Source: an uncultured virus (IMG/VR IMGVR_UViG_3300025371_000001) (Adnaviria > Zilligvirae > Taleaviricota > Tokiviricetes > Ligamenvirales > Lipothrixviridae). From it: 40,872 nt of DNA. Within the stretch, counting starts at the first letter, position 1. The number at the start of each line of letters is the position of its first letter. A model generated the notes under the pieces. The model made no database searches. It had not been told where the DNA came from and was given only the letters and a program-made list of their open reading frames with translations. Below, piece after piece: positions 1 to 24,708 of the stretch. Both the position numbers and the translations under genes were made by a program. Location: IMG/VR virus record IMGVR_UViG_3300025371_000001. One strand, written 5' to 3'.

Positions 1-81
1 CCTCAGCCATATAAGCTATCCTAATCAAAAAGAAATAAACTTTTTCTTCTCACACTTTCCCGCACTTTTACTAAAGATTAA

Positions 82-114
82 AAGCCCCACCCTTCAAGGC
101 GGGGAGGAGGTCAG
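82..114 (+). mobile_element. IS200/IS605-like right-end remnant (hairpin + GGAGGAGGTCAG)
   Basis: AAGCCCCACCCTTCAAGGCGGGGAGGAGGTCAG: imperfect GC hairpin followed by a TCAG end, as recalled for Sulfolobales IS200/IS605 elements. No transposase in the window. Confidence 0.6.
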
Positions 115-148
115 AAAAGTTTTTAGATTTCCTACCAGCTTTAAACAT

Positions 149-1585: not shown

Positions 1586-1717
1586 CAAAATGAACGACAA
1601 GCCTCGCCTTTGTCAACAGTTTCAGATAACCTGTAAAGTTTATGTCATTTGATATCATTTAACATTACTAACTATCCCTTAACGAAAATTTATAAACTTT
1701 TCCATTAACATTAACAT

Positions 1718-1921
1718 GTAGAAGAGAGCCCTACAGTGAACCCGAGGAGCAATGTGAGGGGGAGGATGGGTTCGATGAGGCTCCCCATGTCGTGGCTGGG
1801 AGTCCATACTCCCTAACCTAGGCGTGGGGAGCCAGACAAGGGGAATGAGGACGAGGGTTGATATGAAATATCATGAAACTCTATGAAAGTCCGACCCCCG
1901 TCAAAGCATGGAGGAGGTCAG
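1718..1921 (+). ncRNA. Candidate structured RNA ending in an IS200/IS605-type right end (TnpB omegaRNA-like, orphan)
   Basis: BRE/TATA GAAAATTTATAAA 1684-1696; GC-rich; stem GGCTCCCCATGTC (1779-1791) / GGCGTGGGGAGCC (1821-1833) enclosing a GGGAGT/ACTCCC hairpin; ends GGAGGAGGTCAG. Confidence 0.5.
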
Positions 1922-1974
1922 AACGTTAAGCGTTTTTAGTAAGATTTTTTAACCATTCATGTATCATATTCTCT

Positions 1975-3876
1975 ATGGAACGTAAGACACTCATAATCAT
2001 TCTCTCAGCAGCATTAGCAATAATCATAGCAGTACTCATTTACTATTTCTTCATACTGAAGAAACCAGTAGCACAAGTGAGCGGAATTGAGACCTTTATA
2101 TTATCTCCAGCTAACCCATCTCAATCCACATCTATTACAATACCAACTGGTACGCAGTTAACGTTTGGTATTTATTTGAGTAACGCTAAACCAAATAGTA
2201 CATATACCGTACAGTTAGCAGGTAATACGTATCAAATAAACACTGATGGTAACGGTAACGGAGGGATAGCATTAGCTACTTCTCCAATATCTTCAAACAC
2301 TACAGTAGTATTAACAATAACTGGGCCTTGTATACCATCTGCTTATACACTCAATATTAGTGTAACAACATCTTCAATAACTACAACAATTCCACCACCA
2401 ACAACGACTTCATCAACAACAACCACAATTCTACCGCCACCACCAACTACGACAACTACAATTCCACCACCAACTTCATCAACAACAGTAACTCCGACTT
2501 CTACTATAGTCAGTGGAGGTTCTCAATATAACGGTTTATTAATAGGATTTGAGACCCTGTTTAGTTCAACATCGTCTACCCCGTCACAGCAAGGTAATAT
2601 ACCGTTTTCTGTGTTAATATTACCTACTCATCCATCTGGCGGTGCTGTTTGGGCATATGTATTTACTCCACAACAAGTATCTAATCCTTCATTATTACAG
2701 CTATGTATTTCAGGAGCAGGCGTGAACACATGTTCTGGTAATACTGGAGGAGCTTCTTATGTAGGGACATATAATGGTTATTATGTATATGAGTTCTGGT
2801 ACCCACAACAGATGTATTTAAATCAATCTTTCAGTGTATATCTAGGCATGTGTCCAGCAAGTAACCCAAGTTGTTATGCAGGAGCAGGATTAACTCCAGT
2901 TTCAGAAACAATAACTGTACCAGGCGGAGTCCCAGATTATGTTGCTAACGGATATCAATTAGCCATACCTTCTAATAATTGGCTACAATATTTACAACAA
3001 TTTGGTGTAAGTATATCCAACTATCAAGTAATTGCACCAGAATTCTTATTTGGTACAGAAGCAAGTCCTCAATACTTCTTGCTCAATTACTTGTGCAGCC
3101 CCGTGAACAACAGTTATTATGGTGGTAGTGGCGACCCATCGACTATACAACAATTAGTAACCTCTGGTAAACTCTTCTTCGGTCAAATATTTACCACACC
3201 AGCATTGATAAGTTCTTGTTCAGGGTACAGTGGTGGATGTTTTGGACTATTATATGGTATGGCGTTCCCAGGAGACACTGCAGGAATAAACAATTCACAA
3301 ATACCACTACCAAGTAATTGGCAATTACAAGGAGGATTGTATCCAGACGTAGAGGTAAACATAGTGATAAAGAACGGTCAATTATGTGCTCAACCCACTA
3401 CATTCAATGGATACGATGCACCTGCACTCATAGAAGCTTTAGGAGCCAGTAACCCATTACCTTTGCCTGCGTCTGGCGTACCTCTTGGTCAAGTGAATTT
3501 CGTTTCGTGGTATAAGAATTATATCGTCGATTATAATAGTAACTTACCAACAATAAACGTAAACGGTGTACCCTTACAATTCTATTCAATGAGCAATAGC
3601 ATATTTACCGAACCAGTTTCAGGGAAAGGGTTGCCTGGTGTTGGACAACAATACAGCGTAGTAATAGGGCCGGCTAACGGGCAATACGGCCCGTATCTAA
3701 GGCCTACTATAACATTTACCCTATATCAATTTAATACTGTACAAGATTATATAAATTGGGTAGTTAACGCGATAAATAATGGACAATATGTGCTACATGT
3801 ATATAGCACACCAATAACTGTGTCAGGAATGACACTTTCAAGCTATTATATCGAAATAACAGCACCACCACCATAA
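1975..3876 (+). CDS. Membrane-anchored or secreted surface (glyco)protein with Thr/Pro-rich linker
   Basis: 633 aa; N-terminal hydrophobic helix flanked by basic residues; TTTIPPP repeats; Cys-, Gly- and Tyr-rich body. Confidence 0.75.
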   Translation: MERKTLIIILSAALAIIIAVLIYYFFILKKPVAQVSGIETFILSPANPSQSTSITIPTGTQLTFGIYLSNAKPNSTYTVQLAGNTYQINTDGNGNGGIALATSPISSNTTVVLTITGPCIPSAYTLNISVTTSSITTTIPPPTTTSSTTTTILPPPPTTTTTIPPPTSSTTVTPTSTIVSGGSQYNGLLIGFETLFSSTSSTPSQQGNIPFSVLILPTHPSGGAVWAYVFTPQQVSNPSLLQLCISGAGVNTCSGNTGGASYVGTYNGYYVYEFWYPQQMYLNQSFSVYLGMCPASNPSCYAGAGLTPVSETITVPGGVPDYVANGYQLAIPSNNWLQYLQQFGVSISNYQVIAPEFLFGTEASPQYFLLNYLCSPVNNSYYGGSGDPSTIQQLVTSGKLFFGQIFTTPALISSCSGYSGGCFGLLYGMAFPGDTAGINNSQIPLPSNWQLQGGLYPDVEVNIVIKNGQLCAQPTTFNGYDAPALIEALGASNPLPLPASGVPLGQVNFVSWYKNYIVDYNSNLPTINVNGVPLQFYSMSNSIFTEPVSGKGLPGVGQQYSVVIGPANGQYGPYLRPTITFTLYQFNTVQDYINWVVNAINNGQYVLHVYSTPITVSGMTLSSYYIEITAPPP

Positions 3877-3986
3877 AAGTGTAAGAATATATGTGGGTTC
3901 AACAATCACTATACTGTTTTTTCGAAGCTATAATAGTTGCATTGTGGGCAATAGCTGCGTATTTGGCATATATACTCTACAATTTG

Positions 3987-4091
3987 TTAACTGGAGAAAG
4001 CTAGCATTTGGTAGATAGCAAATACGAGCATGCCTATACCGAATGCTAGAAGAAATAGTGCTGCTATCAACGTCATTGCTTGAATATTCAT
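3987..4091 (-). CDS. Small single-TM peptide (34 aa), not in the ORF track
   Basis: MNIQAMTLIAALFLLAFGIGMLVFAIYQMLAFSS; SD-like GGCGGGG just upstream on the minus strand; divergent TTTTAAA box near 4133-4139. Confidence 0.55.
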   Translation of the reverse strand: MNIQAMTLIAALFLLAFGIGMLVFAIYQMLAFSS

Positions 4092-4187
4092 TATTAATAA
4101 CCCCGCCTAAGTACAAAGTTGTATAGGTAAAATTTAAAATTTTTTGTAGTTAAGGGTTAGAAAGCTTGCAGATGAGATGAGGCCAAG

Positions 4188-4463
4188 TTGTATGTAGTTG
4201 TAATAGATAAATTGCGGGAAGGACTAGAATGCATTAAAGAAGGAGATATAGAATTATACGACGATATAGTTACAGTTTTGTCAGACAAGGACATTATCGA
4301 GGAATATTTCGTAAATGTATCAGACGAAACATGGAACACCTTTAAGGATCCATATGCAAAAAGGGTTTTTGTAAATGAATCAGAACTAGAGAAATACCTC
4401 AAGGCAGCTACATACGTTTTTGTCTATAAAAACGGAACTGTTAAATTATGTGTTTACCCGTAA
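4188..4463 (+). CDS. Hypothetical protein (91 aa)
   Basis: TTG start after GAGG; upstream TTTAAA box; normal composition. Confidence 0.6.
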   Translation: MYVVVIDKLREGLECIKEGDIELYDDIVTVLSDKDIIEEYFVNVSDETWNTFKDPYAKRVFVNESELEKYLKAATYVFVYKNGTVKLCVYP

Positions 4464-4560
4464 CTTTTCCTTTTCTCAACTCGTACTCTTTTTCTATATA
4501 CCTCTTCGAACTTCTCTCCTTCTTTCTCTCTCCCTCTTCTCGTTTCATCAGTATGAAATT

Positions 4561-4634
4561 AAAACTACGTCACTCAGGACTGGGTAAAATTTAAATTCCA
4601 GAACGTGTAAAGTGTAATAAAATACTCCGAATGT
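4561..4634 (+). promoter_or_regulatory. Array leader/promoter, copy 1
   Basis: AAAACTACGT.ACTCAG.AC.G.GTAAAATTTAAATT..AGAAC....AAAGTGTAATAAAA, conserved before arrays 1, 3 and 4; TATA TTTAAA 4590-4595. Confidence 0.8.
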
Positions 4635-4875
4635 TGCACATAAGCAAAACAATTGCTCAATAATCACATCGCTGCACACAAGCAATCGGCATATTCAATA
4701 ACAAAAAGTTTGCACACAAGCAAGTCAAGACATCAATAACCGCTCCACTGCACACCAGCAAGAGGAGAAGTCGATAATGTGCATATTGCACACAAGCAAT
4801 CCTGATTGTTAATAAAATACAAATTGCACACGAGCAAGATAAAATTTCAATAAGAGTTAGATTGCACACAAACAA
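4635..4875 (+). repeat. TIGR-like dual-repeat guide array 1 (6 units, 38-nt period)
   Basis: Repeat TGCACAYAAGCAA at 4635, 4673, 4711, 4749, 4787, 4825, 4863, alternating with TCAATAA; two variable 9-nt spacers per unit. Confidence 0.9.
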
Positions 4876-4888
4876 CCATTCATAGTCA

Positions 4889-4948
4889 CGTCCTCTCACC
4901 GAAAACTTTTTAAACCCTCTTTCTTTTTTTCCATGTGGGGGTGGAAAT
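4889..4948 (+). promoter_or_regulatory. Repeated viral promoter cassette driving the Nop-domain gene
   Basis: CGTCCTCTCACCGAAAACTTTTTAAACC + pyrimidine tract + GGTGG SD + ATG; about 13 copies in the window. Confidence 0.8.
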
Positions 4949-5980
4949 ATGAGTGAAAAAGATTTGGTGAATTTAAGGGATTTGGTAGCGTTCAGAGACG
5001 ACTTAATTAAGCTTCGTGTAGCATATGGAAATAGAATAGGTGCAAAAAAAGAGAAAAACGGTTGGGTATTCATAAGGAGATATTCGGTATGTAAGAATAA
5101 TCACTTAGTGCTGCTTAAGGAAGACGAAAAACGTGACAAATGTCCAATATGTAATGAACCAGTCAAAATTGTTGAAGAAACGCCGTCGGATGAACTCGTA
5201 CAAAGATACATGGAATTACTTAAACAACAAGAGATAGTCGAAGGACTTATAGCGGACGCTGTTACTAAATTCCCCGAGTTTACCAACTTCTTGGCATTTA
5301 TTAGGGGTATAGGACCAGCTAACGCTGCAAGACTCCTCGCTTATGCGTATCCGCCAAGGTACCAATACAGAGTCAATGCGTTCAGGAAATATGCGGGCCT
5401 GGCAGTAATGTTTACATGTCCTAAATGCGGGTATTACTATTACGCTGGTGAATCCTCGAACGGTAAACCGGCCGTTCCCTCGAAAGAGGGTTGGCTGTGC
5501 CCTAACGACGGTACCAAACTCATAGGTACAGCAGCAAGAAACGTTAAGTACAATAGGACTGTTAAGACGTTTTTACTAGGGATTCTAGCTAATAACCTTA
5601 TATTAGCTGGTGGTGTTTACGCAAAGATAATAAAATCATTTAAGGAGGAAATTGCGTCCAAACACCCAGACTGGCCTAAACTAAAAGTACAGAGGACTGC
5701 TATCAGGAAAGCAATATCCTTACTATTAACACAATACTTTGCCATCTCCTTGCATTATCGAGAAGGAGTGCCACTAACTGAAGCCTATAAGGTAGTTTTG
5801 GGGAAAGAATATGAAGTCATAAGTAAACATGAAGACTTTATAATTGCTCCAGTGACTGATTACTACGTTGATATAAAATCAACTAAATATAAGGCAAGAG
5901 CTGAAAAGGTAATAGAGGAGTTGGGGGTAAATAAGGATGAGGTAATAGCATGGCTTAAGAAGAAAAAGATTATTGAATGA
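4949..5980 (+). CDS. IS110/Nop-domain RNA-binding protein, TasA-like (no RuvC/HNH), with two Zn-ribbon insertions
   Basis: LRDLVAFRDDLIKLRVAYGNRI helix; IRGIGPANAARLLA...FRKYAGL motif; YNRTVKTFL...RTAIRKAISLLL tail, all typical of the IS110 C-terminal/Nop region; no N-terminal DEDD domain; CxxxH..CxxC and CxxC..CxxD; flanked on both sides by dual-repeat arrays. Confidence 0.8.
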   Translation: MSEKDLVNLRDLVAFRDDLIKLRVAYGNRIGAKKEKNGWVFIRRYSVCKNNHLVLLKEDEKRDKCPICNEPVKIVEETPSDELVQRYMELLKQQEIVEGLIADAVTKFPEFTNFLAFIRGIGPANAARLLAYAYPPRYQYRVNAFRKYAGLAVMFTCPKCGYYYYAGESSNGKPAVPSKEGWLCPNDGTKLIGTAARNVKYNRTVKTFLLGILANNLILAGGVYAKIIKSFKEEIASKHPDWPKLKVQRTAIRKAISLLLTQYFAISLHYREGVPLTEAYKVVLGKEYEVISKHEDFIIAPVTDYYVDIKSTKYKARAEKVIEELGVNKDEVIAWLKKKKIIE

Positions 5981-5981
5981 T

Positions 5982-6389
5982 TGCACACAAGCAAAATATC
6001 CATTCAATAATATTTATATTGCACACAAGCAATAAAATCGCTCAATAAAAATGTAGATGCACATAAGCAACCAAAAGGCTTAATAACGTGGTCGTTGCAC
6101 ACAAGCAATTAGGGAGTTCAATAAGATGGAGTCTGCACACAAGCAATCAGCTATTTCAGTAATGAATGTACGTGCACATAAGCAATAAATACGTTCAACA
6201 ATGAAATCAATGCACACAAGCAAGAAAAGATTTTAATAATTATTTTCCTGCACATAAGCAAACAAGGCATTTAATAATCGAAATCTTGCACACAAGCAAA
6301 GGAGAGGGTTCAATAATGGTGTCACTGCACATCTTTTGCACATAAGCAACTGATTGATTATTAATAAAATACCAATTGCACACAATACC
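5982..6389 (+). repeat. TIGR-like dual-repeat guide array 2 (10 units)
   Basis: Repeats at 5982, 6020, 6058, 6096, 6134, 6173, 6211, 6249, 6287, (6326 partial), 6337, 6377 (degenerate); begins 1 nt after the stop codon of the Nop-domain gene. Confidence 0.9.
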
Positions 6390-6503
6390 AAAACTTTAAA
6401 CCCTATCGATACAATTACAAAGTTGGGGGTTAAGGGGGTGGAAAGCCTCGCCTCTCTGAGGCGGGGTAAAATTTTTAAACCTAAACAATTATTTATCTCC
6501 AAG

Positions 6504-7103
6504 ATGTCCTCCTTCGATCAATTTAATGAGACAAACAACATACCATCTATATCTATTCCTAAAGATTCACCGATAGAGATATATTTACCTAGGGATGTAT
6601 TATACTGTGACGGGACTTCAGCAATCCTTCCAGAAGATTATGTATTAAAAGAGGGTAACTTGAGACTGTTTGTACCTAAAACTAAAATCGATGAAGTTGT
6701 CAACGCGATGAAAAGATGTGGTTTCCACGAGGAAAAGGTATGTGATGGCGAGAAGTATTCTCTTGTAACAAGATTTTTCTATTATGTTAATCTGCATGTT
6801 AAAATATACGACGACGGTTTTATTGATGGATACTTTGAAGTTTCACAAAAGGATAGGAAATATAACTACACTGTTCCTTCAATTTATGAAGTATTTGAAA
6901 TTTATAGAACTGTGTACAACAATTTATACATATTCGATAACGTCGCTAATAAGTGGATCAAAGAAGTGAGTGTACATTATGCAGTAACGCTAAATCCCCC
7001 TAATTCCTCAGCATCGTTCCAAATCGCTGTAGGGCCTTTAAGCATAATTGGAATCTTAGCTTATCCTCTCTCAAGGTTAACTTGTCCTTCCTCTCCAAGT
7101 TAG
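6504..7103 (+). CDS. Hypothetical protein (about 199 aa) with hydrophobic C-terminus
   Basis: Start moved to ATG 6504, about 24 nt after TTTTTAAA 6472-6479; the upstream extension in the ORF track runs through the array end and an IS-end-like hairpin. Confidence 0.7.
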   Translation: MSSFDQFNETNNIPSISIPKDSPIEIYLPRDVLYCDGTSAILPEDYVLKEGNLRLFVPKTKIDEVVNAMKRCGFHEEKVCDGEKYSLVTRFFYYVNLHVKIYDDGFIDGYFEVSQKDRKYNYTVPSIYEVFEIYRTVYNNLYIFDNVANKWIKEVSVHYAVTLNPPNSSASFQIAVGPLSIIGILAYPLSRLTCPSSPS

Positions 7104-7160
7104 AAACCTCTCACCGAAAGCTTTTTAACCCCCTTTTCTCTTTTTCTCATGGGCGGAAAA

Positions 7161-7538
7161 ATGTATAAGATCATAGTTAAGGATTTTGATTTGAATCGGC
7201 TCTTTTCGTTTATGGAAACTTATTCTGGAGTACGTATCTATCTGTGGAAAACCGATGACGCCGAATTATGTTCATGGTCAAATCCATCTTACGTTTCAGA
7301 CATAATAGTAGAGAGGGACGCACTTAACGAGTGGAAGAAAATATGTGAACTGGGAGACGATGTAGTCAAAAACGTAAATGTAGTAGATAAAGTGGACTTA
7401 AAGCAGTACTTTAAATATAATGTTCCAGATTACGTCCCACTACAAGATATTGATATTTTAGTATTAAATCATCTGTGGATGGTGGAAATTCCCGCACTTT
7501 TGCAGAACTTCAACGAAGGTTCCGGGAACAATAGTTAA
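7161..7538 (+). CDS. Hypothetical protein
   Basis: Follows the promoter cassette at 7107-7160 with a GGCGG SD. Confidence 0.7.
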   Translation: MYKIIVKDFDLNRLFSFMETYSGVRIYLWKTDDAELCSWSNPSYVSDIIVERDALNEWKKICELGDDVVKNVNVVDKVDLKQYFKYNVPDYVPLQDIDILVLNHLWMVEIPALLQNFNEGSGNNS

Positions 7539-7571
7539 CTTGTTACACCCGCACTTTTGCAGAACTTCAAC
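7491..7571. CRISPR. Possible mini-CRISPR: two identical 24-nt repeats with a 33-nt spacer
   Basis: CCCGCACTTTTGCAGAACTTCAAC at 7491-7514 and 7548-7571; only two copies and no cas genes. Confidence 0.4.
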
Positions 7572-7613
7572 CATCCGCACGCAGTCGCTATCGTCGGCAT
7601 CGTCTCTTATTCA

Positions 7614-7668
7614 CGTGGGGGTGCGTGCCCCACAGGACGCGGGTCTACCCCTTTCGGGGAACCCCGCC
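7614..7668. other. GC-rich tandem hairpins
   Basis: GTGGGG..CCCCAC and GCGGG-TCTA-CCCC-TTTC-GGGG-AAC-CCCGC (GAAA tetraloop on the minus strand). Confidence 0.55.
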
Positions 7669-7878
7669 TAAGTATCAGTTAGTGCAGTAGAATTTATAGT
7701 TTTCTGTAGTTAAGGGGACGAAAAACCTCATAGATGGTTGTGGGTCAGATCTGAGCTGTTACGTTCAGTTCTGATTAACGTTTCTATCTTTCCTCACTTC
7801 GTACTCTTTCTCTATATACCTCTTCGAACTTCTTCCCTTCTTTTCCCTCTCTTCACTCCGTTTCATCAGTACGAAATT

Positions 7879-7953
7879 AAAACTACGTTACTCAGTACGG
7901 AGTAAAATTTAAATTCTAGAACAGTTAAAGTGTAATAAAAACACCTCGAATGT
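7879..7953 (+). promoter_or_regulatory. Array leader/promoter, copy 2
   Basis: Near-identical to 4561-4634; TATA 7908-7913. Confidence 0.8.
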
Positions 7954-8400
7954 TGCACACAAGCAAAATAGGCACTCAATAAAGAGACTGTTGCACACAA
8001 GCAAGATAACGACTCAATAAGTAAAGTAGTGCACATAAGCAAGAGTGAACGCCAATAATAATATTTTTGCACACAAGCAACAAAGCCATTCAACAAATAT
8101 CTGATTGCACACAAGCAAGGTATTCCTTCAATAATTCTGCCGTTGCACATAAGCAAGATAACGACTCAATAATTATATTGCTGCACACAAGCAACGAAAT
8201 TGCTCAATAAAAATGTAGATGCACACAAGCAATAATGCATTTCAATAAGTTGCGTATTGCACACAAGCAAAGGTAAGCTTTAATAATCAGTCTCCTGCAC
8301 ATAAGCAATCAAAAAAGTCAATAATATAATCTCTGCACGTAAGCAAACAAAGGATTCAATAATTTTCTACTTGCACACAAGCAACAAAGAAGTTCAATAA
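7954..8400 (+). repeat. TIGR-like dual-repeat guide array 3 (11 complete units + 1 partial)
   Basis: Repeats every 38 nt from 7954 to 8372; all spacers are 9 nt. Confidence 0.9.
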
Positions 8401-8559
8401 AATACATCTCTAAGTTTTCACCATGTCTTATGAAGCCTCGCCCCTTCTAGGGGTGTTTTTAAAAAAGTTTTCAAGCTCAGGCTGCAAGGATTTTCCAATA
8501 ATGCTATAAGATTAGAAAACTTTAATAGGCACTATTTAAAAACAATTAATAGAGTAGTG

Positions 8560-8643
8560 TTAGAGATGAGGGAACACCTGGCGTAGCGGCCACGTGTTCC
8601 TGACAAAACAAACATCAAACCTTGCATGCGGGGAAGAGTTCAG
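8560..8643 (+). ncRNA. Candidate small hairpin RNA ending in a degenerate IS200/IS605 right end
   Basis: Stem GGAACACCTGGC (8571-8582) / GCCACGTGTTCC (8589-8600); ends GCGGGGAAGAGTTCAG; upstream TTTAAAA box. Confidence 0.35.
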
Positions 8644-8685
8644 AAAATTTTTAAGTTAAAATACAGAAAACTTTTATGTTAAAAA

Positions 8686-9603
8686 ATGAAACCAGTAGAT
8701 CTTGTAGAACTAGTTAATAAGAACATGAATAGCGTCGAGTTAGAAACATATTTTGAACCAGATAAAGGTTTTTACATTTACACTGGAGTTTTTGAACTGC
8801 AAATTAGTTTAGATTTCGTCAGTACTTATTTTTGGACAAATGTATATCCTTCAGTTGAAGAGCAGTTCTTGTCAACAATTACTCATTCTTCTTTACCTAC
8901 GTCGCCAGGTCGTTATTTCGGGTTTGGATCCGTCATGAAGAAAAGTGACATAAATTCCTTTTTATCGTATTTGAAAAAACAGTTCCTACAACGGCCAGAA
9001 CTTTCAAGATATATTATATTCGAGACAACTGGCGAATTTGCTGGTAGTTTTACAGTTAAAACCGAAGAAATGGACATGAAAACTATGTATGAGGTTGTCA
9101 GAATAATTGCGGCTGCAGCTAACCCGATTGTTAATAATGTCATTAATAAAGTAGAAAATGAGTATAGGAAGTTCATCAACACGTTTAATGTAAACAATTA
9201 CGATGCGTTCGTAGTATGTGCAGTTAATCTAGGGCCAGACAAAATTATATTATCCCGCGGTAATACCAGAATTGTACTAACCAATTATGTAGAGGGTATC
9301 ACACAAATTCCTTTAGGGACGTTGGAATATTACGAGGGAGAATTGTTAAAGTGGTACATTAGTACAAGCGAGACAGTAGACCTTTCTCCATTAAATGGGG
9401 TTTGTACCACAGCTCAGCGTAAGCTAATGAAAGAACATTATGTAATTTCCAAAATGGGAAGTTTCGTAGTTTCATTGAAAACTTCTACAGTAGGTGGTTT
9501 CAGAAATGAAAAGTTCATAGAGTATACAAAAGTTTCATTGCAATCAAACTTTTCTACAGTTTTACAAAATATACTCAGCACATTTATGAAAATTAGGGGA
9601 TAA
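8686..9603 (+). CDS. Hypothetical protein (305 aa)
   Basis: Long ORF; upstream TATA-like boxes. Confidence 0.75.
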   Translation: MKPVDLVELVNKNMNSVELETYFEPDKGFYIYTGVFELQISLDFVSTYFWTNVYPSVEEQFLSTITHSSLPTSPGRYFGFGSVMKKSDINSFLSYLKKQFLQRPELSRYIIFETTGEFAGSFTVKTEEMDMKTMYEVVRIIAAAANPIVNNVINKVENEYRKFINTFNVNNYDAFVVCAVNLGPDKIILSRGNTRIVLTNYVEGITQIPLGTLEYYEGELLKWYISTSETVDLSPLNGVCTTAQRKLMKEHYVISKMGSFVVSLKTSTVGGFRNEKFIEYTKVSLQSNFSTVLQNILSTFMKIRG

Positions 9604-9644
9604 GGAACAGAAAAGTTTTAAACGAATCTGTTTATAATATTTTG

Positions 9645-10484
9645 ATGGTTTTCAAAAAGAATGATTTATATGCAGCTGTTATTCGTTACAACGAACTTCC
9701 AGGCGAGATATTTTTCCTTAAATTAGAATATGATGGTGGACATATTGTATTCACGATGAACGAAAATTGCTATCACATAAGCGTAGAAGATGATGAGTTG
9801 GGAAGCTTTGCTTTGATTAATCGAAATATTAATAATTCTAATTTTTCACAACAAATTATGAAGATTTTAAGTGAGTTTGGTAATTCGGTGGATTTAAAGT
9901 ACATTAAAGCTTTTTCTGAGGTAAGAATTAATGGTGAAGAGATAAAAGTTGATAACAATAAAATGTTGAATTTAATAGACAAGCTTTTCCATATTACGCT
10001 CTCTTATGTCAAGAACAATTTCTCATCCTACCACTTTTCGTTAAATTTTGATAGAATTGTTATATATTACACATATATAATTAGAGAACCTTGGTTTCCT
10101 AGATATTTTGAAAAAAATCCTACATTGAATGGCTATCGGGCATGCACTACAGAATATATTTATGCGGTTTCATATACTTCTTTTGGTGACTCATTCGTTA
10201 TTTATAAAATACAGGATAATAATGAACCTAAAGAAGTTTTCAGAATTGATATGGGTATCTATAAATATTCACAGCGTATTTTATCTAATGTAATAAAATT
10301 AGTTCTACAATCAAAGATCAAGGCAGATAGTTATGAAATTGAAATTAGCGGGAAAAATGTAACCATTAATAATAAGGACGTTAAAGTAGAAGATAAGGTA
10401 GTCAATGATATTAAAGATTTGGTAAAGAGCCAAATAGAATATATTATTAACACCGTAAAGAATAAATTAAACAAGTTAGTGTGA
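9645..10484 (+). CDS. Hypothetical protein (about 279 aa)
   Basis: Leaderless ATG after GAAAAGTTTTAAA. Confidence 0.75.
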   Translation: MVFKKNDLYAAVIRYNELPGEIFFLKLEYDGGHIVFTMNENCYHISVEDDELGSFALINRNINNSNFSQQIMKILSEFGNSVDLKYIKAFSEVRINGEEIKVDNNKMLNLIDKLFHITLSYVKNNFSSYHFSLNFDRIVIYYTYIIREPWFPRYFEKNPTLNGYRACTTEYIYAVSYTSFGDSFVIYKIQDNNEPKEVFRIDMGIYKYSQRILSNVIKLVLQSKIKADSYEIEISGKNVTINNKDVKVEDKVVNDIKDLVKSQIEYIINTVKNKLNKLV

Positions 10485-10567
10485 AGCTCAAGATACGGAG
10501 CAACCACGTCCTACCACCAAAAGCTTTTTAAATTCCCCTTTTTCCTTTATTCACTTGGGGTGGAAAA

Positions 10568-11230
10568 ATGGATATAGATGATTATGTTGATTCAGTTATT
10601 AGGCTAACAAAGGATAATACTATTATAATTTCAGAGTTGGAAATAAAACCAGATAATGCCAATTTTGGTGATATAGTTTGCGGACAATTACAGAGAAGGG
10701 AATTTTTTTACTTATCACCTCCATGTTATCTTGACGGAAAAAGACTTATTGCACTCATGGTTTTAGAGACGGGTGACATATTTCCTTTCTTTAAAGACGA
10801 CGAAAAAAATTTACGTATAACTATATATAATTCACTTCTAGGATTCGCTGTTGTTAAAAGTTTCACTATATATAAAATATATGTAGACAAATTTACAAGC
10901 GATGATAACTTCAATTACATACTCACTACTACCGATAATATAGATATTGTTACTCTATTATATGCTAAACTTAGCGGAAAGCGTAGTGAAAACATGTTCA
11001 TGATATATTCTACACCGCTTGTCGTTATCAAACTACCGTATATAAACGCTTTACCTAAGTATTCCGCGTTATATATAGAGGGAACAAATATTACTGTTGA
11101 TGAAATTAATGTTGACACGCTTAGACAACTTCTATACAAAAACTATGAGAACGCGAAAAAAAGCTTACAACGTGTACTTGAGGACAATCCACAATTAGCA
11201 CAATTAATAGAGAAATTAGAAATTTATTAA
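10568..11230 (+). CDS. Hypothetical protein (220 aa)
   Basis: Promoter cassette 10507-10567 with GGGGTGG SD. Confidence 0.8.
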   Translation: MDIDDYVDSVIRLTKDNTIIISELEIKPDNANFGDIVCGQLQRREFFYLSPPCYLDGKRLIALMVLETGDIFPFFKDDEKNLRITIYNSLLGFAVVKSFTIYKIYVDKFTSDDNFNYILTTTDNIDIVTLLYAKLSGKRSENMFMIYSTPLVVIKLPYINALPKYSALYIEGTNITVDEINVDTLRQLLYKNYENAKKSLQRVLEDNPQLAQLIEKLEIY

Positions 11231-11250
11231 GTTCTACGTTAAAGGGACGT

Positions 11251-11324
11251 AAAACTACGTTACTCAGTACGGAGTAAAATTTAAATTTCAGAACGTGTAA
11301 AGTGTAATAAAATACACCTAATGT
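11251..11324 (+). promoter_or_regulatory. Array leader/promoter, copy 3
   Basis: Near-identical to 4561-4634; TATA 11280-11285. Confidence 0.8.
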
Positions 11325-11946
11325 TGCACACAAGCAAGGGAGTTCCTCAATAAATATCATTTTGCACACAAGCAATTTTGAGGCTCAATAATGGATGTAT
11401 TGCACACAAGCAAAAGGGAAAATTCAATAATTAAAAAATTGCACACTAGCAAGAGAAATGCTCAATAAAGACTTAATTGCACACTAGCAATGGGAAAATT
11501 CAGTAAATAAACGATTGCACACAAGCAAAAAATCGTCTCAATAATAATCGATTTGCACACTAGCAATCGGCTACTTCAATAATCTTCTTGATGCACACAA
11601 GCAAAGGAAAAAGTCGATAATATAGACGCTGCACATAAGCAAAAAGAGGGTTCAATAAATACTGTAATGCACATGAGCAATGAATGAGGTCAATAAGAAA
11701 TATACTGCACACGAGCAATTTAGAATCTCAATAAATTGCCTACTGCACACGAGCAACTAAGCTATTCAATAAAAAACCAATTGCACATAAGCAAGAGAAA
11801 ATTTCAATAAGAGTTAGATCGCACATAAGCAACAGATAAAGTCAATAATATCTATCTTGCACACAAGCAAGTGCCTAGCTCAATAATTACTGCACTGCAC
11901 ACAAGCAAGATAAAAATTCAATAAGAAGTGAAATGCACACAAGTAA
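11325..11946 (+). repeat. TIGR-like dual-repeat guide array 4 (16 units)
   Basis: 17 repeats from 11325 to 11934; 38-nt period with one 39-nt unit. Confidence 0.9.
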
Positions 11947-12033
11947 TCGTTTATAATCACGTCCTCTCACCGAAAACTTTTTAAACTCCCCTCTCTCTTT
12001 CTTGTCATGGGGCTAAAGCCCCAGGTGGAAAAA

Positions 12034-12312
12034 GTGGAAAAAAATGAAATTGAAGATAATTGGGAAAAATTAGTGTATAACCAGAATGAAAGTATGAAGG
12101 ACGTGCTACGTTTTAGACAATTACGTAGTTATATTGATAAAAAAATACCAGAAATCTTACAACAAAAAAAGACGTTATTTATACCATTCAATAACAGTAG
12201 AGATGCTGCAGTTATAACGCTTGGAGTATATATAAATAAAGTACATAAATTGTATGTCAGGTATAATAAAGACGGTATACTTATTTTCCCACAACAAAAC
12301 CCTCCGAGATAA
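12034..12312 (+). CDS. Small basic hypothetical protein
   Basis: GTG after GGTGG SD (alternative ATG 12007); promoter cassette from 11960. Confidence 0.65.
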   Translation: MEKNEIEDNWEKLVYNQNESMKDVLRFRQLRSYIDKKIPEILQQKKTLFIPFNNSRDAAVITLGVYINKVHKLYVRYNKDGILIFPQQNPPR

Positions 12313-12399
12313 GGAGATAGTTGCGTCCTCCCAGCGAAAGCTTTTTAACCCCCTTTCCCCTTTCTTATCATGGGGCTAAAAGCCCCAGGTGAAGAAAAA

Positions 12400-12729
12400 A
12401 TGAGCATGCGTCCTATAGATGTTCCCAATATTAAGTTACCACCACATACATTATTAATGATGATTAGTAATAACGACGACATATTATTATCGTTCTGTCG
12501 GAATAAAAAACCAAAACATGGAGTTGTCACAAATTACGGTATAAGATGGGAAAATTATGATGAGTTTCGTAAAGACGCTGATAACGTATGTCACGAATTT
12601 TACCAACTTTTAGTCGTTTACCCGAATAACATGGTAATTGCACCATGTCACGCCGACGAAGTATATAACTTACGTATTGATCCAATAACGGGAGAAAAAT
12701 TGCCCAGCAAATTGGGGACGGAAAAATGA
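12400..12729 (+). CDS. Hypothetical protein
   Basis: ATG after GGTG SD; promoter cassette from 12324. Confidence 0.7.
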   Translation: MSMRPIDVPNIKLPPHTLLMMISNNDDILLSFCRNKKPKHGVVTNYGIRWENYDEFRKDADNVCHEFYQLLVVYPNNMVIAPCHADEVYNLRIDPITGEKLPSKLGTEK

Positions 12730-13511
12730 ATATAAACGAAATGCTTGAGCGTCTTAATAAGATAGAAATTCCTAAAAAATATTCCGTTCTTTCAATCATT
12801 TATAAGAATTATAAATTTCTTAACAACGATTCCGTATTATTGAAATATAATGACAAGTTCTATATTTATAGAAACAAAGGTTCGACGAGAATGCTAATCG
12901 ACCTCGATGATCGTAAGGTATACATAGGTATCCCAGCGATACTCGCCCGCGGACTAAATTTTAAATTTGTAATACTTCCATATTCATTTGAGTTTTCGCA
13001 TAAGAAATTAAACACTATATTATCAAACACGATGTTTATTGAAGAAGAAGCAGAACCGATAGACGTCGTTAGCGAATTCGGACTTCTCATGAGTGATATG
13101 GGAAGGGATATAGTTTTCGAATATGATGTTACGAAAAGAGCAGAAGAAATACGTAACAAATATTCACGACCAGACAGTGTAGACGTTAAGACGAAGGTCG
13201 TTAATATCAGAGGCTATACGAAAAAGATCGACATCGTAACACTAAAATATGGTAATGATGAAATTAAACTTACCCATGTGGCAAGAAATATATTAGGACT
13301 TAGCAATAGTGAACTTATAACGTATTCTATGGTTTGCGAAAAACTTTATTCATCTTCTGCATGTTCTGCCGCAGTGAGACGTAATATATTCAAAACGTTA
13401 CACGAACTACGCGATTATGGACTTATTGATAAACAATATGCTCTTACGACGGTTAAAGGTTTTACAGTTTACCGTTCAAGCACAAAGGTTGAGAACGATG
13501 AAAATAGTTGA
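12726..13511 (+). CDS. Hypothetical protein with family-like N-terminal tag; possible C-terminal winged helix
   Basis: Starts MNINEMLERLNKIEI; VRRNIFKTLHELRDYGLID near the C-terminus; ATGA overlap with the upstream gene. Confidence 0.7.
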   Translation: MNINEMLERLNKIEIPKKYSVLSIIYKNYKFLNNDSVLLKYNDKFYIYRNKGSTRMLIDLDDRKVYIGIPAILARGLNFKFVILPYSFEFSHKKLNTILSNTMFIEEEAEPIDVVSEFGLLMSDMGRDIVFEYDVTKRAEEIRNKYSRPDSVDVKTKVVNIRGYTKKIDIVTLKYGNDEIKLTHVARNILGLSNSELITYSMVCEKLYSSSACSAAVRRNIFKTLHELRDYGLIDKQYALTTVKGFTVYRSSTKVENDENS

Positions 13512-14241
13512 AATGCTTAAACGCCTAGAAAACGTTGAAATTGATGAAGATGAAAGACATGAAATCGCCGAGTATATAGCACGAAAATTTAGTGTTGATG
13601 ATTCAGTATACATACACCATATCATGACGAAAGATAAGACAATATACGACTTCGACACGTATGAAATTCTTCTCAAATCTAACAAAATATCACCCGACGA
13701 TGCGTTTGTATACGTAGAAGACTACAATTCGGATGCACATTACCCAGCATATTATCTTTATCCATTCCTCGTTGGTGAATTTCTCTTACCGAACGCTTAT
13801 TTATCTAAACTAGGTTTTAGACCTGACTATTATTATGTAGCACCTGCTACTGGGCTTAAATACATCGCCATAGTTAATGAATTTAGAGACTTTGGTCGTA
13901 TGGTCGTAGAGGTAGCTGACATTGATACTGTAGTAATCAGTACGAACCTGCAGACGTTAGTCCAAGGTGTTTTAAGTACAAAACACAGTATTGAATGCAT
14001 GACTTATAAGGATGCAGCAGAGATTATGTCAAGATTTCTCTCGCAGAAACTTTTCGCTGGATATAATTTTAGTATGGCGGAAAAGATAATTCGTAGATAT
14101 TATGAAGATAATGACACTTCGTCGGCTAAAGACGTTGAGGCCATCAAAGACGCATATAATCATATATTTCAACCATATCGAGTAGTATACGACCTAAACA
14201 CTAAGCAATTTGTAGTAAGTGGTAACAATGAAAGTAGATGA
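13498..14241 (+). CDS. MKVDELLK paralog family member 1
   Basis: Shared motifs YPFL, AYLSKLG, PATGLKY, SQKLFAGY, DAYNxIFxPYR. Confidence 0.85.
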   Translation: MKIVEMLKRLENVEIDEDERHEIAEYIARKFSVDDSVYIHHIMTKDKTIYDFDTYEILLKSNKISPDDAFVYVEDYNSDAHYPAYYLYPFLVGEFLLPNAYLSKLGFRPDYYYVAPATGLKYIAIVNEFRDFGRMVVEVADIDTVVISTNLQTLVQGVLSTKHSIECMTYKDAAEIMSRFLSQKLFAGYNFSMAEKIIRRYYEDNDTSSAKDVEAIKDAYNHIFQPYRVVYDLNTKQFVVSGNNESR

Positions 14242-14968
14242 ACTACTTAAACATCTAGAAAGCATCAAAATTGATGAAGACGAAAAACGTGAAATCGCAG
14301 AATATATAGCACAAAAATTAGGCGTTGATAATTCACCACGCATACATCATTATATCATAACGAAAGACAGGAAAATATACGACACCAGCTCATACAAAGA
14401 GCTTCTCAAATCTAACGGAATTTCACCTAACGACGCATATGTATACGTAAAAAATGACTATTCCGCTGTATACGACTTAGTAAGTTATCTTTACCCTTTT
14501 CTCATTGATAGATATTTCCTACCACACGCTTATTTATCGAAACTAGGTTTAGAAAGCAAATTTTATCGTATAGCACCTGCTACTGGACTTAGATACGTCT
14601 CTATGGTTGTTCGTTTCCTAAACGCTAAACATGCAGTCGTAGAGGTAGCTAACATCGATAATGTAGCAATTTACACTAACTTACCAAGAATAGTACGCGA
14701 TATAAGTACTAAACAAATAGACGACGAAGATGACGAGGTGGCAGAAATTATTGCCTCCGAATTGGTTTCGCAAAAAATTTTCGCTGGACATGACTACTAT
14801 AAGGCATTAGCTATACTTCATAAATTTTACGAAAATCGTGATACATCATTAGCTAAAGAAGTTGAGGCCATCAAAGACGCATATAATCATATATTTCAAC
14901 CATATCGAGTAGTATACGACCTAAACACTAAGCAATTTGTAGTAAGTGGTAACAATGAAAGTAGATGA
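14228..14968 (+). CDS. MKVDELLK paralog family member 2
   Basis: Family motifs; 14-nt overlap with the previous gene. Confidence 0.85.
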   Translation: MKVDELLKHLESIKIDEDEKREIAEYIAQKLGVDNSPRIHHYIITKDRKIYDTSSYKELLKSNGISPNDAYVYVKNDYSAVYDLVSYLYPFLIDRYFLPHAYLSKLGLESKFYRIAPATGLRYVSMVVRFLNAKHAVVEVANIDNVAIYTNLPRIVRDISTKQIDDEDDEVAEIIASELVSQKIFAGHDYYKALAILHKFYENRDTSLAKEVEAIKDAYNHIFQPYRVVYDLNTKQFVVSGNNESR

Positions 14969-15677
14969 ACTACTTAAACGCTTAGAAAATGTTAGAACTG
15001 ACGAAGACGAAATCAACGAAAGACGTAAAATCGCTGAGTACTTAGCACGAAAATTTAGTGTTGATAAATCACCATACGTATATCATATCATGACGAAAGA
15101 CAAGAAAATATACGACATCGACTCATACGAAAAGCTTCTCAAATCTAACAAAATTTCACCTAACGACGCGTATGTATACATAGAATACTACGATTTCACG
15201 ACATATGGCCCAGGAATATATTTATACCCATTTCTCATGTATGAAAGCAAAACAACTTTGATATACGCTTATCTAGCTAGGCTAAGTTTGAGGTCTTTAT
15301 ATGCAGAACCTGCTACTGGACTTAAATACGTCGCTATGACCATTCGTTTTCTAAGCATTGGCCGTATGGTCGTAGAGGTAGTTGATATTGGTACTGTAGT
15401 AATAAACACGAATTTACTGACGTTAATACACGGTATTTTAAGTAATAAATATATACACGTCGATGAAGTAGAAGATGTCGCATCAGTACTACACTCACGG
15501 AAACTTTTCGCTGGATATGACTCTAACGAGACACTGAGGATACTCGATAGATATTACGAAAAACATGATACATCATTAGCTAAAGACGTTGAGGCCATCA
15601 GAGACGCGTATGATCACATCTTCAAACCATTCCGTATAGAATACGACTTAAACACTAAACAATTCATACCAACTTAA
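14955..15677 (+). CDS. MKVDELLK paralog family member 3
   Basis: Family motifs; 14-nt overlap. Confidence 0.85.
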   Translation: MKVDELLKRLENVRTDEDEINERRKIAEYLARKFSVDKSPYVYHIMTKDKKIYDIDSYEKLLKSNKISPNDAYVYIEYYDFTTYGPGIYLYPFLMYESKTTLIYAYLARLSLRSLYAEPATGLKYVAMTIRFLSIGRMVVEVVDIGTVVINTNLLTLIHGILSNKYIHVDEVEDVASVLHSRKLFAGYDSNETLRILDRYYEKHDTSLAKDVEAIRDAYDHIFKPFRIEYDLNTKQFIPT

Positions 15678-15739
15678 CAACATTCTCTCACAGAAAGCTT
15701 TTTAAACCCCCTTCACCTTTTTCTCCCTTTGGTGAGAGC

Positions 15740-16027
15740 ATGAGCGAAAATAAAGAAAAGAAAAAATACGTTGTCTATGGTATAGAATATAATATAGACC
15801 TAGACGACAAATACGTTGTATACGATATTTGTGTACCTAAAGACCAGGAAGACGAGTTCCTTAAATGGGTAGAGGAAAACAAAATCATACGTGGTTATAG
15901 TCCTGGTGGCGAAGCAGATGAGGATGAATGTCGTGCAATATTTCGTCATGGCAAGCTATGTTTCATCACGTCAATGAGATCCAGTCTAGCACTTCTGATA
16001 ATGTTAACAAAGTCGGGTAGCTTATGA
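15740..16027 (+). CDS. Hypothetical protein (95 aa)
   Basis: Promoter cassette from 15682 with GGTGA SD. Confidence 0.7.
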   Translation: MSENKEKKKYVVYGIEYNIDLDDKYVVYDICVPKDQEDEFLKWVEENKIIRGYSPGGEADEDECRAIFRHGKLCFITSMRSSLALLIMLTKSGSL

Positions 16028-16046
16028 AGTTTATTAGGTGGTATTT

Positions 16047-16802
16047 ATGAAGGTTGATGAACTAATTAAACATCTAGGAAACATTAAAACCGACGAGAAT
16101 AAAATCGACGAAAAACGTGAAATCGCTGAATACCTAGCACAAGTATTCGATGGTAGCGTGATACCAGCCACAACTAATTTTATGATGAAAGATAAGACAG
16201 TATACGGCTTCGACTCGTATGTAAATCTTTTCAGGACTCGCAGAATCTCACCAGACGATGCATTTGTATACGTGGGTTCCTACTATACGTCTGGAACTTT
16301 TCCAGTAGATTATCTTTATCCTTTCCTCACTGATAAATATCTTTTAAGGAACGCATATCTATCTAAACTAGGTTGCGGACCTAGTGACTGTAGTACTTAT
16401 GCACCTGCACGTGGACTTAAATACGTCAGTATGGCTAGTATATTTACAGACGCTAGACGTGTGGTCGTGGAGGTAGCTGATCTCGATACTGTCGCAATCA
16501 ACACAAATTTATTAACTATAGCACACAATGTTTTAAGTACAACTGGATACATGTGTAGTGATAAAAAAGCAGCAGAGATTATGTCAAGATTTCTCTCGCA
16601 GAAACTTTTCGCTGGATATGACTTCATCGAGGCGGGAAATATAATGAGTAAATATTACAAAGACAATGACACATTACTGATTACAGACGTTAAGGCTATA
16701 AGAGACGCTTATAATCGTATCTTCAAACCATATCGAATAGTATACAACATAAAGACCAAACGAGTCATACCACTTAGCGTCCTCTCACCGAAAGCTTTTT
16801 AA
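16047..16802 (+). CDS. MKVDELLK paralog family member 4
   Basis: Family motifs; GGTGG SD. Confidence 0.85.
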   Translation: MKVDELIKHLGNIKTDENKIDEKREIAEYLAQVFDGSVIPATTNFMMKDKTVYGFDSYVNLFRTRRISPDDAFVYVGSYYTSGTFPVDYLYPFLTDKYLLRNAYLSKLGCGPSDCSTYAPARGLKYVSMASIFTDARRVVVEVADLDTVAINTNLLTIAHNVLSTTGYMCSDKKAAEIMSRFLSQKLFAGYDFIEAGNIMSKYYKDNDTLLITDVKAIRDAYNRIFKPYRIVYNIKTKRVIPLSVLSPKAF

Positions 16803-16836
16803 ACTCCCTTCATTTACTTCTCTCTTTGGTGAGAAC

Positions 16837-17631
16837 ATGAAGACTGATGAGTTACTTAAACATTTAGAAAACACTAAAATCGACGAAAAACGTGAAATCG
16901 CCGAATACCACGATGAAAAACATAAAATTATTGAATATATATTACAAAAACTTGGTGATAAACTTTATGATAGAACACATTTATATCACATTATAACAAA
17001 AACTGGTGAAATATATGAATTAGGTATGTATGAAGATCTTCTCAAACACGACTCTAACGTCTCACCAGCATACATATTTATAGCAAACCTCTGGTCTACA
17101 TCCGATTATGATCTAGTATTAGGTTATTGTCCTTTTATAGGTGAAAGAGATCTTCTGACATATGCTTATTTGCTAAAACATTACTATTATATAACCCACT
17201 TTGACGACCTTAAATACATGGCTATGATTATCCATTTTTCAACGTTTATTAAGATTGAAGTAGTCGATATCGACACTGTTGCAAACAACATGAATTTAAC
17301 AAAATTAATACGGATGTTAAGTGAAGTGGAAGATGAGAACAAAAAAGTGGAAGAGTTTGAGCTTTACGTTGGCACTCAGAGACTATTTAATGGGTATAAC
17401 TTTTATGAAGTAGTAAGAATAATTGAAAGGTACTACGAGGCTTTAAATATTAGATATATTCCCGATATGGTATCACTGGGTAAAGAAGTCGGGGACATCA
17501 GAGACGCTTACGAACGTATATTTCAACCATATCGTGTAGAATACGACTTGGAGACTAAACAATTATATCGAGTAGTATACGACTCAAAGACTAAACGATT
17601 TGTAGTAAGTGGTAACAATGAAAGTAGATGA
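16837..17631 (+). CDS. MKVDELLK paralog family member 5 (divergent, with internal duplications)
   Basis: Family motifs are degenerate; DEKxxIxEY and YRVxYD segments are duplicated. Confidence 0.85.
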   Translation: MKTDELLKHLENTKIDEKREIAEYHDEKHKIIEYILQKLGDKLYDRTHLYHIITKTGEIYELGMYEDLLKHDSNVSPAYIFIANLWSTSDYDLVLGYCPFIGERDLLTYAYLLKHYYYITHFDDLKYMAMIIHFSTFIKIEVVDIDTVANNMNLTKLIRMLSEVEDENKKVEEFELYVGTQRLFNGYNFYEVVRIIERYYEALNIRYIPDMVSLGKEVGDIRDAYERIFQPYRVEYDLETKQLYRVVYDSKTKRFVVSGNNESR

Positions 17632-18379
17632 ACTACTTAAACATCTAGAAAACATCAAAACCGATGAAGACGAAAGACGTAAAATCGCTGAGTATATAGC
17701 ACAAACGTTCGGTGATAAAGGGCTGCGAGACTTATTTTATGTTATGATGAAAGATAAGACAATATACTATTTCAGCGAGTATAGAGACCTTCTCAAATCT
17801 AACAGAATTTCACCTAATGACGCATACGTATACGTAGATAACAATTATTTCGAATCCAGCTCTGAAAGTTATTTTTACCCTTTTCTCGGTCAAGGAGTGC
17901 CCTTGATAGACGGAATATCTTTGATAACCGCTTATTTATCGAAACTAGGTTTCGAAACCAAATATTATTATCGTATAGCACCAGCTACTGGTCTCAAATA
18001 TGTTGCAGTAGTTTATCATTTTCCAGAAGTCGGTCGTACGGTTGTAGAGGTAGCTGATATTGACATCGTTGTGATCAATACACATTTACCAATATTAATA
18101 TACGATGTTTTAAGTACAAAATATGGTGCTAAATATATGACTAATGATGAGGTAAGAGGGATCATATCCCAATTTATCTCACAAAAACTTTTTGCTGGAC
18201 ATACCTTTATCGAAGCACAAGATATAATTCGTAAATATTATAAAAATCACGACATAACAATGGCTAAAGAAGTTGAAGCCATTGGAGACGCATATAATCG
18301 TATCTTCCAACCATCTCGAGTAGTATACGACCTAAACACTAAGCAATTTGTAGTAAGTGGTAACAATGAAAGTAGATGA
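17618..18379 (+). CDS. MKVDELLK paralog family member 6
   Basis: Family motifs. Confidence 0.85.
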   Translation: MKVDELLKHLENIKTDEDERRKIAEYIAQTFGDKGLRDLFYVMMKDKTIYYFSEYRDLLKSNRISPNDAYVYVDNNYFESSSESYFYPFLGQGVPLIDGISLITAYLSKLGFETKYYYRIAPATGLKYVAVVYHFPEVGRTVVEVADIDIVVINTHLPILIYDVLSTKYGAKYMTNDEVRGIISQFISQKLFAGHTFIEAQDIIRKYYKNHDITMAKEVEAIGDAYNRIFQPSRVVYDLNTKQFVVSGNNESR

Positions 18380-19758: not shown

Positions 19759-19882
19759 TCGCATATTTCAATCATATAGAGTAGTATACGACCTAAAGAC
19801 TAAACAATTTATAGTTTAGTTACGTCCTCTCACCGAAAGCTTTTTAAACCCCCTTTTCCTTTCTCTCTCCTTGGTGAAAAAG

Positions 19883-20182: not shown

Positions 20183-20253
20183 AAAATTTAAATCTGTCCT
20201 CCCATCGAAAGCTTTTTAAACCCCCTTCACCTTTTTTCTCGTGGGTGGAAAAA

Positions 20254-22015: not shown

Positions 22016-22020
22016 TAACA

Positions 22021-22755: not shown

Positions 22756-22819
22756 TCACGTCCTTCCATAGAAACCTTTTTAAATCCCCTTTTCCCTTTC
22801 TCTCTCTTTGGTGGGAATA

Positions 22820-24704: not shown

Positions 24705-24708
24705 CAAA

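Follow-up and report, generated by a model that had tools for sequence, protein, structure and literature searches.

Described systems and the viral locus

The closest described counterpart of the guide arrays analysed here is the dual-repeat system of TIGR (tandem interspaced guide RNA) arrays with the effector TasA, exemplified by FpTasA (Faure et al. 2025, PMC12045711). As the main text of that paper has it, a Nop-only effector is combined with arrays on both sides of tas, in which edge and loop repeats of about 9 nucleotides (nt) each alternate with two 9-nt spacers in a 36-nt unit; the edge repeat starts with UG, ends with CAA and has two closing pairs. The same organization is present in the window, as we call the whole 40,872-nt stretch IMGVR_UViG_3300025371_000001, except that its unit is 38 nt long, with a 13-nt edge and a 7-nt loop repeat. 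The window also differs in that its effector has two Cys-rich inserts and in that two extra arrays, both preceded by a shared leader, are found kilobases away from tas. The TIGR-TasA system itself is already known; the orphan arrays with their conserved promoter-like leader are a real variant of it. Our preferred reading, to which we give a probability of about 0.75, is that the two distant arrays are working, separately transcribed guide libraries of the one TIGR-TasA system of this virus.

According to the main texts of Faure et al. and of Xu et al. (bioRxiv 10.64898/2026.09.09.750476), the latter describing TasA as a transcriptional repressor, arrays lie upstream or downstream of tas or flank it; guide gain and the guides' own promoters are left open. 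The words leader (for TIGR) and orphan are absent from both main texts, and a term search of the PMC12045711 supplements for Acidianus, KU645528, YNP1 or orphan gave no match. No description of orphan TIGR arrays or of a TIGR leader was found in the literature searched, a scope outside which most subscription papers fall. The published TIGR finder, as given in the main text of the preprint, requires a 4-nt gap between boxes, and it would probably miss 13/7-repeat arrays because such repeats are without that gap. Surveys centred on tas with 36-nt rules can undercount guides: 28 of the 44 in the window lie away from the effector.

Closest in sequence are the B343 locus of Acidianus tailed spindle virus (ATSV; KU645528) and Sulfolobales virus YNP1 (KP282679), whose TasA proteins are 81.5% and 79.2% identical to that of the window. 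They have the same repeats, and some guides are identical to those of the array behind tas in the window (array 2 below). In contrast to the window, each has a single array directly after tas, with neither a leader core nor an orphan TIGR array. Faure et al. cite the ATSV paper, in their main text, for an earlier sighting of such an array. ATSV also contains, at 11703-11992 and 1.5 kb from its TIGR array, degenerate repeats that carry the annotation of a possible viral CRISPR locus; we rejected them as an orphan TIGR array, the repeat being CRISPR-like.

The mini-CRISPR arrays of Sulfolobus polyhedral viruses 1 and 2 (SPV1/SPV2), as presented in the main text of Medvedeva et al. (2019, PMC6858448), are likewise effector-less guide arrays of Sulfolobales viruses, with a leader promoter made of a transcription factor B recognition element (BRE) and a TATA box, and with different spacers at orthologous sites. 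Those arrays, however, consist of CRISPR repeats served by host Cas proteins and hold 1-2 spacers with known viral targets, whereas the window has split guides, 6-16 units per array, a virus-encoded effector and no target found in about 0.7 Mb of viral DNA. Viral mini-CRISPRs have a host-matching CRISPR repeat and single 30-40-nt spacers; the spacers here are split 9+9, and no Rfam CRISPR repeat was found in window positions 1-13000 at E values up to 1.

A single nuclease-free TasA and four arrays

Pfam searches of the window identified an ATV_ORF273 family protein with many paralogues, MoxR/AAA ATPases and vWA proteins, and the MoxR protein is 28-37% identical to those of Sulfolobus monocaudaviruses 1 to 4 (SMV1-4) and Acidianus two-tailed virus (ATV). 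Because of this gene content and these MoxR matches, the window is assigned to a bicaudavirus-like Sulfolobales virus, of which it is a contig. The system has the following parts (L and G numbers are our handles for other loci and contigs).

4949-5980, plus strand: TasA, 343 amino acids (aa); Nop fold lacking a nuclease domain, with two Cys-rich inserts and with Y288/H294 invariant; assigned from fold and homology
4635-4875, plus strand: TIGR array 1, 6 full units, ending 73 nt upstream of tasA; orthologue in L027
5982-6387, plus strand: TIGR array 2, 10 units, starting 2 nt past the tasA stop; without leader
7954-8409, plus strand: orphan TIGR array 3, 12 units, the final one without closing edge; apparent orthologue in L029
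11325-11946, plus strand: orphan TIGR array 4, 16 units; orthologue in L024

The open reading frame (ORF) at 4949-5980 has 71 homologues and no Pfam match over the cut-off. Its structure model (predicted local distance difference test, pLDDT, 90.8) gave TIGR TasR (9mty, E 1.7e-4) and TasH as best Foldseek matches, and 9mty, 9w04 and 21kl are its best structural matches. VIA Z values were 15.2 and 14.9 for TasR and TasH versus 9.1 for the next, unrelated match; after TasR and TasH, IS110 recombinases come next. A profile of 27 TasA sequences matched 9mty at E 1.1e-4. Because the alignment starts at residues 3-4, opposite TasR residue 111 and TasH residue 66 and hence past the nuclease domains of both, the ORF encodes a nuclease-free TasA. 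The protein has the predicted coiled coil and Nop domain of a dual-repeat TIGR-TasA effector and no N-terminal HNH or RuvC domain. The six cysteines of the two inserts, Y288 and H294 are invariant across the 27 sequences. SpTasH uses Y289 and H296 for precursor processing, according to PMC13421893, and a Y/H dyad also appears in the main text of Xu et al.; the candidate pair Y288/H294 resembles that of SpTasH in its numbering. By tblastn, this is the single tas gene of the whole window.

A scan for the 13-nt repeat gave four runs, all on the plus strand and with a 38-nt period, in the layout 13/9/7/9: edge TGCAC(AC/AT)AAGCAA, spacer, loop TCAATAA, spacer. Parsing yielded 6+10+12+16 = 44 units for arrays 1-4, or 42 with a stricter parse, which agrees with the about 43 counted in the first-pass annotation. 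Array 2 consists of regular repeats at 5982-6349 and a truncated repeat near 6387. The annotated start of array 3 was correct and its end fell short: 12 edge repeats run from 7954 to 8384 and the final unit ends at 8409. Array 4, with 17 edge repeats, has the extent already given to it, 11325-11946. With its two alternating repeats and two 9-nt spacers, the unit behaves as A-loop-B: cross-array pairs with an identical spacer B share spacer A in 34 of 47 cases, and the next A, across the edge, is shared in 11 of 33 such pairs. The closing pairs of the TG...CAA edge are retained (G-C in 298 and C-G in 295 of 306).

Arrays 1 and 2 are beside tas. Array 3 is 2.0 kb and array 4 is 5.3 kb away from it; because they have no adjacent tas, these two are classed as orphan arrays rather than as loci of their own. 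That they stand without an effector, as first annotated, is thus real. Both keep intact, undecayed repeats, like array 2: outside the variable positions 6-8, the edges carry no substitution in the 12 units scored for array 3 and the 8 scored for array 2, and a single one in the 15 scored for array 4. The guides of arrays 3 and 4 do not duplicate those of arrays 1 and 2, one near-identical full unit apart (number 6 of array 1 and number 13 of array 4). In all arrays, 73-81% of distinct halves, for either spacer, end in a pyrimidine, whose pairing with the terminal AA would lengthen the repeat stems.

Public contigs from a single run tile 3900-12600: their 8 pieces show 0 differences from the window, leave gaps at about 7578-7653 and overlap by 2 bases at 7886-7888. 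This run is possibly the source of the window, so the tiling is not independent. An assembly artefact is unlikely because L026 spans 6895-8875 at 99.8% independently of that tiling. L026 and L028 reproduce array 3 and the start of array 4 at 99.8-100%.

A conserved promoter-like leader core

Arrays 1, 3 and 4 are preceded by a common sequence, and further elements surround them.

4560-4634, plus strand: leader core 1; BRE-like element 4584-4589, TATA box 4590-4597, inferred start near 4619
7879-7953, plus strand: leader core 3; TATA box at 7908, inferred start near 7937
11250-11324, plus strand: leader core 4; TATA box at 11280, inferred start near 11309; without upstream module
4461-4565, unstranded: pyrimidine-rich intergenic module, copy 1, upstream of leader 1; 83% identical to 7776-7883; not array-specific
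7763-7883, unstranded: pyrimidine-rich module, copy 2; not array-specific
11955-12006, plus strand: trailer, a gene-promoter-like motif common in this genome (13 copies); also ends array 1 at 4885-4948
8433-8460, plus strand: GC hairpin and T run after array 3, a possible terminator; 21 nt identical to an insertion sequence (IS) IS200/605 end of SMV1

Over 75-77 nt, the three leader cores have identities of 89.6-90.7% with one another (E 1e-22 to 1e-24). The leader of about 74 nt first described for these arrays is therein recovered, although arrays 1 and 3 share more, about 175 nt in all, including a pyrimidine-rich module of about 120 nt beyond the core. TTTAAA, at 4590, 7908 and 11280, lies 45, 46 and 45 nt ahead of the first repeat; the fixed distance annotated for it holds in the window and loosens in four relatives, to 41, 44, 45 and 47 nt. 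In all seven aligned leader copies the BRE-like GTAAAA and TTTAAATT are identical and GTAAAATTTAAATT and TAAAGTGTAATAAA are invariant, and length varies nowhere between the BRE and the inferred start, only upstream of the former or downstream of the latter. Archaeal promoters combine a BRE and a TATA box, with transcription starting about 29 nt from the first T. On this pattern, the leader core is plausibly a BRE + TATA promoter facing the array. Promoters of similar form are listed for Sulfolobus spindle-shaped viruses in PMC6080066. A sigma-70 promoter scan, a model unsuited to archaea, was at chance (35 versus 32.9). Most leader cores have an inverted repeat (TTACTC...GAGTAA or variants) over the BRE, e.g. 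at 7888-7905, and in two relatives the gene directly upstream of the leader encodes what we take to be a ribbon-helix-helix-like protein.

A metagenome scan with the leader core gave seven matches, two from the same virus, four from relatives, each with an array, and one unrelated chance match without; an array thus follows in 6 of 7. The leader patterns had no match in IMG/VR. The pyrimidine-rich module, in contrast, has homologues without arrays in SMV1-4, G001 (four copies), G002 and, partly, ATSV. Because of these, only the core is array-specific, and the description of the leader as dedicated applies to those 70 nt and not to the upstream extension.

The module occurs in many bicaudavirus-like genomes (L046 at 11912-12032; L041, L038, L031, with two copies, L043, L044, L045 and L019) and carries recurring TTCG(A/T/C)AC motifs; it could be a protein-binding or replication element. 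It gave no stable consensus fold (z mostly -2.5 to +0.8) and no Rfam match, and hammerhead and C/D-RNA readings of it were weighed by eye and dropped.

The copying of leader, array and trailer as one cassette is suggested by the gene-promoter-like motif that ends arrays 1 and 4 and those of L024, L027 and L030. This motif, GAAA(A/G)CTTTTTAAA with a pyrimidine tract, lies 33-54 nt before many genes (at 4901, 7116, 11972, 12336, 15693, 16790, 19835, 20207, 22771, 23526, 28697 and 31444), which suggests one co-regulated class of cassettes.

Orphan arrays in relatives

Among the relatives are what appear to be orthologues of arrays 1, 3 and 4, whose guides differ almost entirely. In L024 the array follows the gene that also precedes array 4 (95.3% identical in nt), and yet just 1 full unit of its 9 is shared. 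L027 has a leader array before tas, orthologous to array 1, and L029 ends like array 3, with the final half-spacer and trailer in common. In L004, the only match of a gene-promoter pattern search, tas is 92% identical and has the same gene promoter, and array 1 is absent. Such a conserved frame with replaced guides has the look of a library in use.

This turnover bears on the view that duplication, in a hypervariable region with many IS200/605 ends, left arrays 3 and 4 behind as silent by-products. IS-like ends at 8433-8453 and 6415-6467, the repeated element at 7546-7716 and the shuffling of flanking genes among relatives are in its favour. Repeats as intact as those of array 2, guides that were not copied from arrays 1 and 2, and orthologous arrays that persist beside a 95.3% identical gene while their guides are replaced make it very improbable.

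Among 14 IMG/VR contigs with the TIGR repeat, four have an array that lies away from tas. These represent a second orphan type with the repeat of the window:

G002 21503-21759: about 12 kb from tas, on the opposite strand, in a contig 98% complete
L005 14541-14717: 3.5 kb from tas
L011 1182-1340: fragment
L021: fragment

These arrays sit at one orthologous intergenic site, which is without an array in G001, and their upstream sequence differs from the window leader, of which no copy was found in the four contigs. Because of this separate site and upstream sequence, array dispersal has arisen at least twice. Searches with an AAA ATPase query found no relative, and plasmid searches gave no match.

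It is also improbable, if slightly less so than silent duplication, that the orphan arrays feed a different effector, encoded either by another tas beyond the window or by a virus that infects the same cell and supplies its TasA. L030 would fit this, with a leader and array behind the same gene as in L027 and before a gene other than tas, as would the occurrence of one repeat in several unrelated viruses. However, the cognate tasA is only 2-5 kb from the orphan arrays and array 1 shares their leader; as to L030, L011 and L021, each is a short fragment.

Proposed use of the orphan arrays in trans

The orphan arrays with their promoter-like leader are probably used in trans, since the window has one tas, the repeats are undecayed, orthologous arrays have exchanged their guides and a second lineage has orphan arrays as well. 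The first-pass annotation had proposed one effector served by dispersed guides, and by inference from these lines of evidence that proposal is well supported. In the mechanism that we envisage, each leader core would act as an archaeal promoter, with a start some 16-17 nt before the first repeat, and give a plus-strand precursor. TasA would cut the precursor inside the 13-nt edge repeats, with Y288/H294 as candidate dyad, into 38-nt guides of spacer A, loop and spacer B. By analogy with other TasA proteins, among them the one for which Xu et al. report it, a TasA dimer might then bind 18-bp DNA sites and block transcription. The leader-array cassette would have been copied to several intergenic sites, which would place 28 of the 44 guides in trans.

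Several points weigh against this reading. Since the TATA box and the TAAAGTG block were part of the pattern used for the leader search, the invariance in L024-L030 is partly by construction. BRE + TATA patterns are not rarer than chance would give (13 in the window versus 7.8 expected, with a maximum of 14 in 100 shuffles); as bare TTTAAA is also common, with 50 occurrences in the window, it is the conserved position alone that gives the box meaning. When both repeats were examined for box D/box C, the loop repeat TC...TAA was found to retain T and AA but not the box pair of characterised systems. Wobble pairs do not fix the strand (11 G-U-keeping versus 7 A-C variants), which was assigned from the shared direction with tas, the UG...CAA boxes and the side of the BRE rather than from covariation. 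The window may be a partial genome, with a second tas possible outside it. Finally, no guide target was found above chance in about 0.7 Mb of viral DNA, in any of 16 combinations of geometry and gap.

That target search started from 293 unique units, of which 268 have 9+9 spacers, and tested 239 clusters, with re-paired controls, against 0.68-0.70 Mb made up of the window and hot-spring virus loci with arrays masked. For A followed by the reverse complement of B at gap 0, 0, 1 and 19 of the 239 clusters matched at 0, 1 and 2 mismatches, versus 0, 0.85 and 15.5 under the null, viral DNA being all that was searched. Host genes or unsampled competing elements are the likeliest targets. One exact 18/18 match to a unit of L005, at position 18307 of L037 with B then A on the same strand, was rejected, about 0.3 such matches being expected over the 16 combinations.

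Guide turnover and polarity

The first-pass annotation had further suggested that the leader may set array polarity. We compared 24 arrays with 314 parsed units, marking a unit as shared when it had a near-identical full partner in another genome. Excluded before counting were same-contig duplicates (L007, L012, L013, L015, L017, L018, L023, and L016 or L008), the same-virus loci L026 and L028, the chance match L025 and the half of L004 that mirrors the other. So were a false parse of 2 units in L029 and the irregular units that escaped the parser, among them unit 1 of L029.

In leader arrays, 8 of 61 units were shared, distributed over thirds from the leader as 0/20, 2/21 and 6/20. Tas-adjacent arrays were even, with 78 of 235 units shared (28/78, 24/79 and 26/78); for the second orphan type the figures were 4 of 18 (1/5, 3/8 and 0/5). 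The leader-distal bias has a permutation p of 0.003 with all 8 units and of 0.03 with one unit per guide family, in a test that was post hoc and rests on 8 units in 6 families. Conversely, the units and halves shared by array 4 and L024 are in scrambled order, and turnover is fast in leaderless arrays too, 3 pairs with 87-91% tas identity having 0 units in common. Because orthologous arrays are non-collinear and two leaderless arrays, L014 and L019, also differ at their 5' ends, any dependence of polarity on the leader is tentative. The data give a weak hint of leader-proximal guide gain.

The leader core might instead be mainly an entry site for new units, an anchor for adaptation or recombination whether or not it is also a promoter, and the arrays be dispersed because the anchor was copied. 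We regard this as possible, though unlikely. The leader-distal position of shared units, set against their even spread in tas-adjacent arrays, would fit such an anchor; so would the inverted repeat over the BRE and the leader end, where a loop-like TAATAA followed by 10-16 variable bases resembles a relic half unit. The small number of units, the choice of the test after seeing the data, the lack of order between array 4 and L024 and the fast turnover and 5' differences of leaderless arrays argue against it, and no candidate integrase was identified.

Half-spacers have also been re-paired: 13 of the 47 identical-B pairs carry another A, with 0.4 expected by chance. A more ambitious and rather doubtful proposal would join the separate transcription of guide libraries to unit entry, with the TIGR leader as one transferable 70-nt element that has orphan arrays transcribed for a TasA encoded far away and also labels the end where dual-spacer units enter, and recombination inside loop repeats then re-pairing the half-spacers. 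If it were true, the leader would give a first handle on TIGR adaptation, that is, on how TIGR-Tas gains guides. A leader that recurs with arrays and without tas is in any case a defined element for start-site mapping, with a defined end to watch for new units in populations from hot springs; should polarity fail, a modest architectural variant of a known system remains.

Other features of the window

Six ORFs of at least 129 aa between arrays 2 and 4 and a 101-aa ORF after array 4 had no Pfam match over the cut-off and no PHROG match better than E 0.0028. IS200/605-like ends or pieces resembling miniature inverted-repeat transposable elements are repeated at 7546-7716, 4099-4156, 6415-6467 and 91-116, flanking cassettes, and have very high summed depth in hot-spring metagenomes. 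The region 13417-28682 encodes no fewer than 12 paralogous proteins of about 250 aa; of these, the single one tested matches Pfam ATV_ORF273 (E 5.7e-13) and had no tblastn match in the phage collection. Next to an AAA ATPase, 33665-35206 encodes a protein of 513 aa that has a weak vWA match and a long low-complexity stretch rich in Gln/Asn.

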